Of a stretch of DNA of 12,453 nt, positions 5,394-12,453 are shown piece after piece. Source of the DNA: a virus (taxonomy: Duplodnaviria; Heunggongvirae; Uroviricota; Caudoviricetes); IMG/VR virus record IMGVR_UViG_2526164669_000031; one strand, given 5' to 3'. The stretch's first letter is position 1, and every line of letters begins with the position of its first letter. A program made the translations under genes and the position numbers. Below the pieces are notes generated by a model. It was not told where the DNA came from and did not search any database. It saw only the letters and a program-made list of their open reading frames with translations.

Positions 5394-5551
5394 CGTTGAT
5401 GGGCTTTTTATGCTGTTTATTACTGTTTATTTTTATTAATTAACTGAAATAAATAAGAAAAAACAATTTGCATTTCACTATAAAAAATTCCAGGTCCTTC
5501 AGAACCCTTTGAGACCCTTCCAGTCCGGATGGATAAAAAACACACAGCCAT

Positions 5552-5569
5552 TGTAAGGTTGCCGGAACA
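5552..5569 (+). promoter_or_regulatory. PLL-like late promoter activator site (TGT-N12-ACA) upstream of vis
   Basis: Exact TGT-N12-ACA at 5552-5569. It would be centred about 55 nt upstream of a plus-strand start near 5615, leaving a 57-nt leader to the vis ATG at 5672. Confidence 0.5.
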
Positions 5570-5671
5570 AATTCCCCCTGTTGCGTCTGCTGAAAATATT
5601 CACAAAATAAAGCGCTACCCGAAGCCGGACGGACTTATCCGGTGCTGTATGGACATTAACGAGGTAGCCCG

Positions 5672-5938
5672 ATGCAAGCTGTTTTTTCTTCCCCGTCTCC
5701 CGCCCCTGTTACGCCACTGATGCCGCTGCCGGACATCACGCAGGAGCGTTTTTTACGTCTGCCGGAAGTGATGCACCTGTGCGGCCTGTCACGCTCGACC
5801 ATCTATGAACTCATCCGTAAGGGGGAATTTCCGCCGCAGGTGAGTCTTGGCGGTAAAAATGTGGCCTGGCTGCACTCTGAAGTCACCGCATGGATGGCCG
5901 GACGCATTGCCGGACGCAAACGGGGGTACGACGCATGA
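5672..5938 (+). CDS. vis: AlpA/Vis-family small DNA-binding protein (excisionase-like late regulator)
   Basis: 88 aa. The C-terminal two-thirds ([47 protein letters not shown]) is a typical AlpA-family helix-turn-helix. GAGG SD 7 nt upstream of the ATG at 5672. An alternative in-frame start at 5720 would give 72 aa. Confidence 0.8.
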
Positions 5939-6066
5939 TGATGCCCGCTCTGCAAAAACGCCCTTTTTCTGGCTTGCCTTTTTCCGGCATTTGCGGATAT
6001 AGTTTTTCCGCTGCCGCAAAATCGGCAGCCGGGCGTGAGAACCCGTGTAACTCGAAGGCGACATAT

Positions 6067-6088
6067 GACGCGCCATGCGTCTTTTTTT
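6067..6088 (+). terminator. Intrinsic-terminator-like hairpin (GACGC-GCCAT-GCGTC followed by 7 T) in the immunity-like region
   Basis: 5-bp GC-rich stem at 6067-6071 / 6077-6081 with a 5-nt loop, then TTTTTTT at 6082-6088. It lies inside a long frame-1 ORF (5890-6525) of doubtful coding value. Confidence 0.4.
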
Positions 6089-6327
6089 GTGTCGCAATCA
6101 ACGCCACAGAGCGCCAGATTATGGTGTGGCGTGTGGTTTGCCGTGCAGGTATGATCCTGTTCGCAATCGCATGTTATGCCACTGAGTCAATGGTAGCTCA
6201 GGCGGGGCAGCCTCCGGGCTGGCCGGTATTCTTCGAGGCCGGTATTCTCACCCCCGTCTGGGCTATCGCCATCGAGCGTGAGAACTCCGGCGATAGCAGT
6301 TATTTGCTACTCGAAGGAGACTGCCTT

Positions 6328-6525
6328 ATGGCTACAACCCTTACCCCCTCACACCCTGAATTTGTCTTTGTGTTTGCGGCTGTCCGTCGCGCAGACCGTC
6401 ATCCCCGTATCTGTATGCTTCGCACCGTCGCCGGTGATGAACGCAGCGCCCGCCGTTCCCTTGTCCGTGACTATGTGCTCTCCCTTGCTGCCCGTCTGCC
6501 GGTGGTGGAGGTGTCCCGTGCGTAA
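6328..6525 (+). CDS. Hypothetical small protein (65 aa) immediately upstream of epsilon
   Basis: ATG at 6328 is preceded by a strong SD (AAGGAGA, 6314-6320). Its stop TAA at 6523-6525 overlaps the putative GTG start of the next gene. Confidence 0.35.
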
Positions 6526-6805
6526 TAAAAAAGCCCCTCAGACCGTCTCAGCGCGTCATGACGCCCGTGAACACCTCAGCATTGAGGCTTACCATAAGCT
6601 CAACCGCGCCAGCGCCGTATCCCGGTTTGTTGGGGGTGATTTGATTCACCGTGAACTCTCAGGCCTGCATCAGCTCTACATTCCGCATATTTTCAGCTAC
6701 CTGAATGAAGATATTGATTTTGTGCTGAATGAGCTGAAAGCCAAAGGCCTGTGCCGCGATTTTCTCGCCCAGCAGAAAGACCGGGGAGACAGGACGCATG
6801 TTTGA
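6518..6805 (+). CDS. Epsilon-like protein (candidate helper-prophage derepression factor), 95 aa from a GTG start
   Basis: GTG at 6518 with GGAGG 6 nt upstream gives 95 aa, the length I recall for P4 epsilon. The track ORF begins at an upstream GTG (6278) in the same frame. The stop overlaps the next gene's ATG (ATGTTTGA at 6798-6805). Confidence 0.5.
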
Positions 6806-7253
6806 TTTTCCCCAGCCCGGTGAGATTTACCGTTCTGCCGGTTTTCCCGATGTGGCCGTGGTCGGCATTCTGGAAGACGGTATTCCGTGGGAAATGCCGT
6901 ACCGCTGCCCGGACATTGTCTGGAACCCGTACCGCCGTAAATTCAGTATCCTTGTGCGTATCCTCGATGACGGGCGCACCACAGACATCCCGCTGGGGCG
7001 TTTTCTGCGGGAATTTACCTGTGACCGTCCTGACCTGTTTAAACGCAGCCCCGTAAACCGGCATGCGGTACTGAAAGAAATGGCCGGAGACCCGGAATTA
7101 CAGAAATGGCGGGAGAAATATCTGGATATTTACCCGCAGGACCCTGTTCCGGTCAGCCGGGCGGCACCGGTGGCGCGGGAATGGCGGGAAATTCCCCGCA
7201 CGGAGCCTGACCCGGAAATCACCCCGGATAACAGTTACCGCAATTATCTGTAA
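6798..7253 (+). CDS. Hypothetical protein, P4 orf151-like
   Basis: 151 aa, SD GGGGAGA upstream, translationally coupled to the upstream gene, and at the position of orf151 in the P4 left operon. Confidence 0.7.
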   Translation: MFDFPQPGEIYRSAGFPDVAVVGILEDGIPWEMPYRCPDIVWNPYRRKFSILVRILDDGRTTDIPLGRFLREFTCDRPDLFKRSPVNRHAVLKEMAGDPELQKWREKYLDIYPQDPVPVSRAAPVAREWREIPRTEPDPEITPDNSYRNYL

Positions 7254-10594: not shown

Positions 10595-10634
10595 TTTGAG
10601 TCCGGCCTTCGCACCTTCGCACCTTCGCACCATC
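10595..10634 (+). other. attR-like remnant of a tRNA 3' end (T-arm and acceptor end) with a triplicated CCTTCGCAC 9-mer
   Basis: TTTGAGTCCGGCCTTCGCACC...CACCA resembles the T-arm and acceptor end of tRNA-Leu (leuX; recalled 3' end ...GTTCGAGTCCGGCCTTCGGCACCA), the known P4 target. CCTTCGCAC occurs three times in tandem (10606-10632). The sequence is in the same orientation as int. Confidence 0.55.
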
Positions 10635-10647
10635 GGAACATCAATAG

Positions 10648-10667
10648 ACGTCAACGGACGTTTTTTT
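10648..10667 (+). terminator. Small hairpin plus T7 run directly after the tRNA-like fragment (possible native tRNA terminator)
   Basis: ACGTC-AACG-GACGT (10648-10661) followed by TTTTTTT. The stem is only 5 bp. Confidence 0.35.
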
Positions 10668-10833
10668 ATGACTGAAATCCGCGCCACACAAGGCTTTTCG
10701 CTATTTTTCGCTCAACCTAAGTCAACCTACATCAACTTACTGATGTGGATACAGCTACAGCTGCGGCTATATCCCGATTCGATAATGTTTGTACCCACAC
10801 AAAACCCTTGAAAGGCTACAAGGCTGAAATTCT

Positions 10834-11019
10834 CTAAACCATAGAGATGATTTTTATGATCCAGTCTTTCTCTTGTTGAGATAGTTCCAGTTTGCTCACT
10901 CGTGTTAAGAAGGTATTGATCACCTGAACATCCGAATTGGTGAGCCTATTTAATAGAGTGGGTGGTATACCTTTACTAACTATTGCTTTGCGGTGACTTT
11001 CGTAGTTTTTATTACTCAT
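10834..11019 (-). CDS. Short ORF (61 aa) in the AT-rich chromosomal flank; possible gene fragment
   Basis: ORF only. It is in a different frame from the adjacent 77-aa ORF, so the pair may be a decayed gene. No recognisable motif. Confidence 0.2.
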   Translation of the reverse strand: MSNKNYESHRKAIVSKGIPPTLLNRLTNSDVQVINTFLTRVSKLELSQQEKDWIIKIISMV

Positions 11020-11084
11020 TGGTGATCCTCAAATATCATTGTATGGCGGCATTGATCGTTTCCAGCAACCTTTACTTACTCACT

Positions 11085-11318
11085 TCAAACTGCATCCTCG
11101 TAGACTGTTCCACTACAATAATCGAAAAGGCGTGGATGTCCATTCAGGTATCCCGCTAATACGTATAGCAATAACAATGGCTTATGCGGCGCGCGCTGTT
11201 CACCCTTGTGCCAGATTTTTATATTGGCAATTGCCTGCTGTAGCGATTTACTGGAAGCCATTGATATCCCTGGCAGTGAAATAATTGCGATCATGCTCGC
11301 AAATTTTCGGCTGTTCAA
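11085..11318 (-). CDS. Short ORF (77 aa) in the chromosomal flank; possible gene fragment or pseudogene
   Basis: ORF only. It sits downstream of and on the same strand as the nanS-like gene, in an AT-rich stretch. Confidence 0.25.
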   Translation of the reverse strand: MNSRKFASMIAIISLPGISMASSKSLQQAIANIKIWHKGEQRAPHKPLLLLYVLAGYLNGHPRLFDYCSGTVYEDAV

Positions 11319-11472
11319 GCCTGCAAGTGAAGATATATTACTTTGATCTCATTTGTTTTTTTGCTGCCTGTGTACCCTAATTGCCATGCGATGCTGCACC
11401 GACGCTAACCACCGTTTACGCCGGAGGAGTTAAAAGCGTTGATGGATGCGAATAAATCAAATTAATGAACGC

Positions 11473-12453
11473 TCACTTTTCGCCCCAAAACTGCAAAATT
11501 GCTTCTACAAACCTGTCAGAAATAATCCCCCGACGGGCTGCCGCGCTGAAATGACTGCTTCGCAGTGCCGTCGTCCAGTTCTCCGGTGACCGGTACGCTG
11601 AACCGTAATATCCCGTGCTTAAATCGTCCGGGTCTTCATCAGGCGCGTTCGTCAGTCCTCTTTCACCTTGTTGCTGGAAGTCGACGAAAATAATATTGGC
11701 TAAAACATTATTTTGATAATTGCCATAAATAACTTCATACGCATGAGGGAAATTTTCTTTCCAGTACCAGGTGGTATCGCCGCAAAACCACGGCGCGTCA
11801 GTAATATTATTAAGCTGAGAATGGTATTGTTTTAGATCCCTACGAAAGGCTTCAATCATATGATTAAAGTGTTGAGGGTGTGACGCGTAGTCACTGGTCA
11901 TTAAGTCAAATTCGCCTTGCATCCAGCATACGCCGAGGAATTTGTTCTGCGGATTTTTTGCCAGTGCGGCTCGCGTTCTGCTGACTAAATCCTGGTACAG
12001 CGGAGTATCCGTTCCCCAACGACAAGCATCATGGCTGGCTCCGTGCCGTTCTGAATATGTCCCTTCGCTGCCCGCGGTAAAAGCCGATCCGCCACGGCAA
12101 CATGGAACGATGAGAACCCCTGCATTATCAGGAATAAAGGGTAGTAATTTCCGTGCAATATGCAGTGCCTGGCCAACGGTGCCGTACTGTGTTTGATGAT
12201 TCGTTGCCAGAGGATGGTGATAACCCTGCATATCCTGAACATCGTGTGGGCAGTGAGTCAGTGGAATAATGTCGTTAAAGTGACATGACGGGCCTCCGGG
12301 ATGCGTATGCGCAAATCTCGCTAATTGTTTAATTCTGGGATGAGGCGCATCTTCCCTGTCCGGTAATGGCAGTCCTTCGCCATACGCCATGGCATTAGAC
12401 TGACCAGCAACGGTAAGAACATAGTAATAATCGGGCGATATTATTGCGTTCAT
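11473..12453 (-). CDS. nanS: Sialate O-acetylesterase (SGNH/SASA-family), NanS-like; the start codon is at the window edge
   Basis: 326 aa. An N-terminal GQSN(A)MAYGEG motif is characteristic of SGNH/SASA esterases. Length and sequence are consistent with E. coli NanS (YjhS) as I recall it. ATG at 12453..12451. Confidence 0.7.
   Translation of the reverse strand: MNAIISPDYYYVLTVAGQSNAMAYGEGLPLPDREDAPHPRIKQLARFAHTHPGGPSCHFNDIIPLTHCPHDVQDMQGYHHPLATNHQTQYGTVGQALHIARKLLPFIPDNAGVLIVPCCRGGSAFTAGSEGTYSERHGASHDACRWGTDTPLYQDLVSRTRAALAKNPQNKFLGVCWMQGEFDLMTSDYASHPQHFNHMIEAFRRDLKQYHSQLNNITDAPWFCGDTTWYWKENFPHAYEVIYGNYQNNVLANIIFVDFQQQGERGLTNAPDEDPDDLSTGYYGSAYRSPENWTTALRSSHFSAAARRGIISDRFVEAILQFWGEK

Follow-up and report, generated by a model that had tools for sequence, protein, structure and literature searches.

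The stretch of DNA analysed here, 12,453 nucleotides (nt) of a Caudoviricetes virus record (IMG/VR IMGVR_UViG_2526164669_000031) referred to below as the window, carries at about positions 5935-6525 what is very probably the switch by which a P4-like satellite prophage controls its immunity through RNA. The case for this reading is built from homology to phage P4, RNA structures, the geometry and complementarity of a set of recognition sites, covariation of these sites across relatives, the overlap of one of them with a Shine-Dalgarno sequence, and the maintenance of a long open reading frame (ORF) through the region, and the sequence holds nothing that contradicts immunity of the P4 type. The immunity system itself is already known and well studied, and the copy in the window is ordinary save for its recognition allele, which differs from that of P4.

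A preliminary description of the window, made from its letters, had proposed a P4-type immunity region at this position, with the promoter PLE, the nested eta and kil genes, the cI RNA and a terminator. This was borne out both by alignment with P4 (95.7% nucleotide identity between window positions 5528-6900 and NC_001609/X51522 9174-7793, minus strand) and by the order of the genes, which is that of satellite phage P4: integrase, two unknown genes, psu, delta, sid, vis, the long ORF and epsilon, continuing with orf151, orf106 and a P4-family primase of 777 amino acids (aa) (alpha; PGAP annotation). The left operon reads vis, PLE, leader, CI, kil, epsilon, orf151, orf106 and alpha, with int, psu, delta and sid on its other side, and the Pfam families AlpA, Derepression, DUF5375 and Psu are represented among the window proteins. 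The promoter hexamers, both leader hairpins, the CI stalk, CI hairpin 1 and the CI junction site with its targets are identical in P4 and the window, and the kil stretch differs by a single base. The differences from P4 consist of a concerted change of the CI loop site and both its targets (see below), a diverged terminator-CI spacer (6137-6185) which is 9 nt shorter in the window, and a +1/-1 indel pair at 6298/6326 which restores the frame.

The window is a 100% match to Escherichia coli OkiPb01675 (NZ_AP042478.1, 5052297-5064749), where it adjoins tRNA-Leu. Of 5426 complete E. coli genomes, 1048 contain a match to the immunity region, in 64 cases at 99% identity or more, and the allele of the window is a common one. 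The features discussed below are collected in Table 1.

Table 1. Features of the immunity region and the preceding gene (window coordinates; bp, base pairs; CDS, coding sequence; HTH, helix-turn-helix)
Feature	Position	Strand	Basis or partner
vis-like gene (P4 ORF88; AlpA-family HTH, excisionase/regulator)	5672-5938	+	Pfam PF05930 Phage_AlpA, E 7e-21
Long ORF, P4 eta equivalent, 196 aa, kil nested in frame at 3' end	5935-6525	+	ORF list, PGAP CDS
PLE-type constitutive promoter: TTGCCT 5974-5979, 18-nt spacer, TATAGT 5998-6003	5974-6003	+	Promoter scan, P4 identity
IsrK/seqA-like leader, expected short PLE-to-terminator transcript with both upstream CI targets	6010-6087	+	Rfam RF01394 isrK
Leader hairpin 1, GCTGCCG / CAAAAT loop / CGGCAGC, 7 bp	6010-6029 (6010-6016 / 6023-6029)	+	Repeat analysis, fold
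Leader hairpin 2 (CGGG/CCCG), loop shows junction target GTGAGAA 6035-6041	6030-6045	+	Repeat analysis, fold
Upstream loop-site target CTCGAAGG, just 5' of terminator	6051-6058	+	Repeat analysis
Intrinsic terminator, GACGC / GCGTC stem (6067-6081) then T7, between PLE and CI gene	6067-6088	+	Terminator scan
8-bp hairpin in terminator-CI spacer	6101-6132 (6101-6108 / 6125-6132)	+	Repeat analysis; fold z = -2.7
CI/C4-type antisense RNA, immunity factor	~6191-6271	+	Rfam C4, fold, covariation
CI stalk, 17 bp	6191-6207 / 6252-6268	+	
CI hairpin 1	6208-6221	+	
CI hairpin 2, 12-nt loop, recognition loop 6229-6237	6222-6243	+	
CI loop site CTTCGAG	6231-6237, extendable to 6229		Targets CTCGAAG(G) 6051-6058 and CTCGAAGGA 6310-6318
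CI single-stranded junction, 8 nt, recognition site 6245-6251	6244-6251	+	
CI junction site TTCTCAC	6245-6251		Targets GTGAGAA 6035-6041 and GTGAGAA 6278-6284
CCA right after CI stalk	6269-6271	+	
Alternative hairpin, CI stalk 3' strand 6262-6270 with 6289-6297	6262-6297	+	9-bp perfect inverted repeat, fold
Downstream junction-site target GTGAGAA, part of seqC equivalent	6278-6284	+	Repeat analysis
Downstream loop-site target CTCGAAGGA (6310-6318), overlapping kil Shine-Dalgarno GGAG 6316-6319	6310-6319	+	
kil, 65 aa, predicted Icd-like cell-division inhibitor	6328-6525	+	NCBIfam NF033153 phage_ICD_like, E 1.6e-21
C-rich, G-poor stretch at kil start, putative Rho loading site	6330-6370	+	Base composition

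The CI/C4-type RNA and the PLE leader

Covariance models placed the CI RNA, which the preliminary description had been unable to locate; its four target sites were placed by the repeat and covariation analysis described below. The C4 model (RF01695) matches over its full length (model 1-87 of 87, positions 6186-6273, plus strand) with 74.3 bits against a gathering score of 45 and E 2e-13, and the CI region of P4 itself scores 74.9 bits with the same model. The isrK model (RF01394) likewise matches at full length on the plus strand at 6010-6087 (70.7 bits, gathering score 50), and the c4-a1b1 model (RF03163), which describes targets, at 5997-6049 (plus strand, 50.4 bits, gathering score 46.7). 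The C4 and isrK matches recur at the homologous positions in P4, and also in a Kosakonia locus (L004), a Mixta locus (L008) and an uncultivated viral contig (L087).

The CI RNA folds with -48 kcal/mol (z = -4.3); its minus strand folds less well, and the minus-strand ORFs at 5789-6097 and 5883-6107 have no strand-specific signal in their support. Relatives were gathered with the Kil protein, which gave at least 85 related loci (at least five genome contigs and 80 viral contigs), and 53 distinct immunity regions from the listed loci, P4 included, were aligned (alignment A1); all pairing figures below refer to these 53 sequences. The CI stalk is 100% paired, with three pairs changed on both sides and six on one side, both CI hairpins are invariant, and so is the CC which follows the stalk. 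This invariant CC, part of a CCA in the window, would fit an E. coli RNase P substrate, and the P4 CI and P1/P7 C4 RNAs have been listed among the substrates related to the hairpin-like substrates of that enzyme (PMC5499578). In the P4 record X02534, a 'region of dyad symmetry' corresponds in position to the CI stalk.

The 3' strand of the stalk has a second possible partner further downstream, in an alternative hairpin whose loop holds the downstream junction target and which is followed by TTATTT. This hairpin is 98.7% paired with three pairs changed on both sides, compared to 22-63% in slid controls, and it may be either an atypical second terminator, presumably the t4 reported between cI and timm in P4, or a processing structure or intermediate.

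Upstream of the CI gene, the promoter is the sole sigma-70-like match in positions 5400-6900 (pattern scan), and the 'consensus -10 sequence' of X02534 maps to its -10 box by arithmetic from the P4 alignment. The elements of the leader follow each other closely: the -10 box ends at 6003, the predicted transcription start is at about 6010, where the isrK model also begins, and the model ends in the intrinsic terminator. The leader folds with z = -0.9. Leader hairpin 1 is 99.7% paired with one pair altered on both sides, and the terminator stem is 100% paired with one compensatory G-C to C-G change. The promoter, the terminator-like hairpin and two further stems had all been noted in the preliminary description and are present as described, except that both stems are one base pair longer: the CTGCCG-CAAAAT-CGGCAG hairpin given as 6011-6028 has 7 bp, and the stem given as 6102-6108 / 6125-6131 has 8 bp. 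The terminator, which we take to be the t1 of the P4 work, is a t1-type intrinsic terminator between PLE and cI and not the Rho-dependent immunity terminator timm, presumably located further downstream, in or after kil. The elements of the P4 region are PLE, seqA, t1, the cI RNA with seqB, seqC, kil/eta and timm.

The 8-bp hairpin of the terminator-CI spacer differs from P4 at two positions, both of which retain G-U pairing, and it is absent from 13 more distant relatives, where the spacer is shorter and different.

Recognition sites and their covariation

The geometry of the recognition sites was obtained from an analysis of direct and inverted repeats and of exact complements, and then from covariation. 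When the CI core was slid along the whole leader with RNAduplex, the signal was too noisy, with self and unrelated sites equalling the true targets in this G+C-rich sequence. CI has one recognition site in the loop of hairpin 2 and one in the single-stranded junction, and each has one target upstream of the CI gene and one downstream of it. The cognate CI-target duplexes have energies of -8 to -14 kcal/mol, and non-cognate duplexes are nearly all weaker, with a few approaching cognate values.

Pairing between CI and its targets is almost fully conserved while the sequences themselves change. For the upstream targets 99.0% of the alignment cells are paired and 12 of the 15 pairs have changed on both sides, and for the downstream targets the corresponding figures are 99.7% and 11/15, whereas sliding the partner by one to three columns leaves 37-52% paired. 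Broken down by site, the upstream junction target is 99.7% paired with CI 6245-6251 (6/7 pairs changed on both sides) and the upstream loop target 98.3% with CI 6230-6237 (6/8), while the downstream junction target is 100% paired with CI 6245-6251 (6/7) and the downstream loop target 99.5% with CI 6229-6236 (5/8). The intramolecular helices taken together are 99.5% paired, with compensatory changes in the stalk, both leader hairpins and the terminator.

The comparison with P4 is an example of such a concerted change. In the window the CI loop has CTTCGAG and CTCGAAG occurs twice as its target, whereas the P4 CI has CCTGTGAA and its leader has TTCACAGG twice; pairing of the window CI loop with the Shine-Dalgarno-proximal target of P4 would give -3.9 kcal/mol, as opposed to -11.8 kcal/mol for the cognate pair. 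With a P4 junction allele and a compensated non-P4 loop allele, the immunity specificity of the window is predicted to differ from that of P4, at least partly.

Proposed mechanism and its support

In the mechanism that we propose, the constitutive PLE would transcribe the leader, and a CI/C4-type RNA of about 80 nt would be excised from it, with RNase P making the 5' end at the base of the CCA-followed stalk by analogy with P4 CI and P1 C4. The CI RNA would expose its loop and junction sites and pair in trans with the two copies of the bipartite target on nascent PLE transcripts. Pairing with the upstream copy (6035-6041 plus 6051-6058), which lies before the intrinsic terminator, would promote termination there, giving an IsrK-like short RNA and a feedback on CI synthesis. 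Pairing with the downstream copy (6278-6284 plus 6310-6318), which covers the kil ribosome-binding site, would block kil translation; the untranslated C-rich RNA would be exposed to Rho, and transcription would end before epsilon and the alpha primase, so that the satellite would stay quiescent. Transcripts from the upstream promoter PLL, which run through vis, would carry the eta start at 5935, and ribosomes traversing the region in the kil frame would render them insensitive to immunity. Processing, termination, Rho dependence and phenotype would in all this be as in the experiments on P4 and P1.

Several points weigh against this reading. Taken singly, the promoter and terminator motifs are not above chance (one promoter match versus 0.8 expected, two terminators versus 1.7 expected), the evidence for the strain of the window itself is at the level of sequence, and the Rho site was assigned from base composition only. 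The requirement of CI for termination at t1 and the protection of PLL transcripts by eta translation belong to the P4 literature, and so do the precise positions of the CI ends, t1, t4 and timm in P4. We nevertheless regard the promoter, terminator and leader features as real, because of the covariance-model matches (E 1e-10 to 1e-14), the identity of the hexamers with P4 and the covariation across relatives. Lastly, many of the 53 sequences are close kin, so that counting cells suggests more independent compensatory events than there were, and the number of distinct alleles is the safer measure.

Recognition alleles among relatives

The 53 distinct relatives contain about eight loop-site and about five junction-site alleles in 15 combinations, and in 13 of these combinations all three sites (CI, upstream and downstream) match each other; the two exceptional combinations (L008; L022/L067) have degenerate loop sites. 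In the loci L063 and L077 the upstream target block is foreign to their own CI and downstream targets (A1 columns 134-157 versus 339-360), and these natural hybrids point to recombination between the leader and the CI gene. Such hybrids are predicted to have lost CI-dependent intrinsic termination and to have retained the control of kil.

Four loci (L022, L067, L084 and L074) either carry indels of 1-2 nt that put eta out of frame or have loop-site targets that are degenerate, and are probably decaying prophages.

The covariation also bears on the role of the leader RNA at 6010-6087, which resembles IsrK of Gifsy-1 in having two 5' hairpins (with a CAAAAU loop), an end at an intrinsic terminator and a processed C4-like RNA downstream. 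IsrK has been equated with SeqA of P4-like phages (PMC4825925), or, together with C4, described as the structural homologue of P4 seqA and CI RNA (PMC3632133). IsrK differs from the P4 arrangement in that it is reported to activate translation of the orf45-anrP message in trans (PMC4825925), while in P4-type elements the IsrK-equivalent sequence is known as a target of the repressing CI RNA, which is made by processing and pairs with seqA and seqC to give premature termination (PMC4825925). It could be argued that the RNA in the window acts like IsrK and, in trans, switches on translation of the downstream gene from the long transcript, or that it serves as a decoy titrating CI, either instead of or beside being a passive target. 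This would be in line with the full-length isrK match, with the homology just described, and with data from transposon-directed insertion-site sequencing (TraDIS) suggesting that P4-like prophages of Salmonella Typhi need the IsrK-like element to be maintained as lysogens (PMC3632133). We consider it unlikely, as the covariation tested ties the leader sites to CI and to no other part of the transcript, complementarity between 6010-6087 and the kil initiation region having been examined only through CI.

The long open reading frame: eta and kil

Frame 1 is open from 5890 to 6525 (211 aa), as first noted in the preliminary description and confirmed by the ORF list, and the RefSeq/PGAP CDS at 5935-6525 is annotated as 'Icd-like protein'. 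The phage_ICD_like domain is at aa 143-190 of the long ORF, and Pfam Phage_ASH at aa 22-143. The eta start codon overlaps the vis stop codon (ATGA), an overlap kept by four of the five distant relatives that are aligned as far as the vis stop. Since the eta start is located upstream of PLE, eta can be translated only from transcripts which start further upstream (PLL), and kil is the first gene to be translated from PLE transcripts.

The preliminary description had called the coding value of this ORF doubtful. This holds for the part upstream of kil, where the variable sites are spread over the codon positions without third-position bias (29/25/29), whereas kil has a substitution bias of the coding type (11/6/33) and the frame as a whole is maintained. 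In most relatives the kil frame is open for 354-480 nt upstream, compared to 15-138 nt for the other two frames, and the spacing between leader hairpin and kil ATG is divisible by three in all but three of 78 distinct upstream regions despite several independent indels (distances of 312, 321, 282, 276, 273, 300 and 309). A stop-free frame of matching length and composition occurs in 0.7% of shuffles. A frame which is kept open and yet lacks codon-position bias indicates that the open frame is selected, while the amino acid sequence upstream of kil is not; this part of the ORF thus appears to be kept open for the transit of ribosomes rather than for its protein sequence. Forti and colleagues reportedly found in 1999 that translation of eta from PLL transcripts, and not the eta product, prevents Rho-dependent termination.

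The preliminary description had leaned towards the ORF upstream of kil being a purely non-coding leader, with a frame that is open by accident. The even codon positions, the dense packing of RNA elements in the region and the start of PLE transcripts downstream of the ORF start codon all agree with a non-coding leader, but an accidental frame is very improbable in view of the lengths for which the kil frame remains open in relatives, the spacing in multiples of three, the rarity of stop-free frames in shuffles and the conserved ATGA overlap with vis. That the long ORF from 5935 to 6525 encodes a protein repressor, with incidental hairpins, is suggested by the labels of P4 records ('cI gene product (AA 1-137)', 'transcriptional repressor', 'put. 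ash gene') and by matches to Pfam PF10554 Phage_ASH (E 8.5e-22) and PHROG 6928 'transcriptional repressor' (E 1e-86), but we think there is next to no chance of it, as a test for purifying selection gave no support upstream of kil, conservation tracks the RNA pairing (99-100% paired, with many double changes), the published P4 work names an RNA as the immunity factor (cited in PMC4825925, PMC3632133), and the protein-family matches likely reflect RNA-level conservation read in one frame. The names 'Ash', 'transcriptional repressor' and 'cI gene product' are best read as legacy protein labels on a sequence constrained as RNA.

The C-rich stretch at the start of kil coincides with the strongest C-over-G bias of the region (GC skew minimum of -0.40 at 6310-6369), and could plausibly be the place where Rho loads for termination at the immunity terminator. 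A TGT-N12-ACA dyad (TGTAAGGTTGCCGGAACA), the ends of which are shared with P4, lies at 5552-5569, about 100 nt ahead of vis. Late promoters of P2 and P4 have delta/Ogr activator sites of this form, and the dyad probably marks the upstream promoter PLL, from the transcripts of which eta would be translated. Translation of PLE transcripts might also have begun internally, at an in-frame ATG at 6064 that has AAGG five bases before it, but this start was rejected, as distant relatives lack the ATG.

Comparison with P1/P7 and other phages

The I region of P1 and P7 (c4, icd, ant) is built along the same lines, with a stalk, two hairpins and a single-stranded junction in an RNA scoring above the Rfam gathering threshold, two recognition sites, copies of the target upstream and downstream on one transcript, and a downstream target covering the ribosome-binding site of an Icd-like gene. 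The P1/P7 RNA is an RNase P substrate (PMC5499578), which by analogy may hold here as well. While P1 controls icd-ant, and thereby an antirepressor, the region in the window would control kil followed by the satellite replication genes epsilon and alpha, and in P4 the result is that transcription ends prematurely (PMC4825925). The likeness to P1/P7 is one of structure, and extended DNA identity is lacking, the matches being short ones to N15-like phages of Klebsiella and Yersinia.

These short phage matches (57-310 nt, 76-84% identity) are mostly to the CI-RNA segment, with three (H4-H6) also including part of the leader, and come from phiKO2, PY54 and further records of phages of Klebsiella, Enterobacter and Yersinia. 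Three of the records have a CDS over the match, annotated as 'transcriptional repressor', 'Icd-like protein' or 'hypothetical protein'. The RNA module is thus shared well beyond satellites.

Flanking regions of the satellite

The vis counterpart in P4 is annotated as 'excisionase and transcriptional regulator'. Between integrase and psu, on the minus strand at 1315-2825, the window has two overlapping genes of 194 aa and 308 aa, for which there was no match in Pfam or PADLOC, and matches only to PHROGs of unknown function (15250, 15676). According to PMC9122126, this position is the site of variable anti-phage cargo in P4-like satellites, and the two genes are a possible uncharacterised defence pair. 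Past the primase, positions 10600-12453 contain gene fragments only (PGAP pseudogenes), of a phosphorothioated-DNA restriction endonuclease, an HNH endonuclease and, at the window end, a truncated sialate O-acetylesterase; these remnants suggest that the island had a second cargo region at its right end, now decayed.

Implications for annotation and immunity groups

The findings matter chiefly for annotation. RefSeq annotates this stretch with a CDS only ('Icd-like protein' or 'ash family protein') and without an RNA gene, and PHROGs and P4 records still say 'transcriptional repressor', while three Rfam families match above their gathering scores. What functions here is an antisense RNA, presumably processed, with four target sites, together with an intrinsic terminator and a small gene for a predicted toxin. 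Nature also offers in this region a clean case of RNA-RNA covariation over three sites, and one of an ORF that stays open so as to be translated and not for its product.

That immunity specificity can be exchanged as a module is a principle known from a few pairs, P1/P7 and P4/phiR73. Tentatively, and at somewhat less than even chances, the CI recognition sites may be independently exchangeable specificity modules, which recombination would combine into an RNA 'barcode' for the immunity groups of co-circulating P4-like satellites. A mosaic of two modules over three sites on a population scale may be previously undescribed. If this is true, the window represents one immunity group, with the P4 junction allele and a non-P4 loop allele. 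The allele analysis allows for a simple sorting of P4-like satellites into predicted immunity groups.

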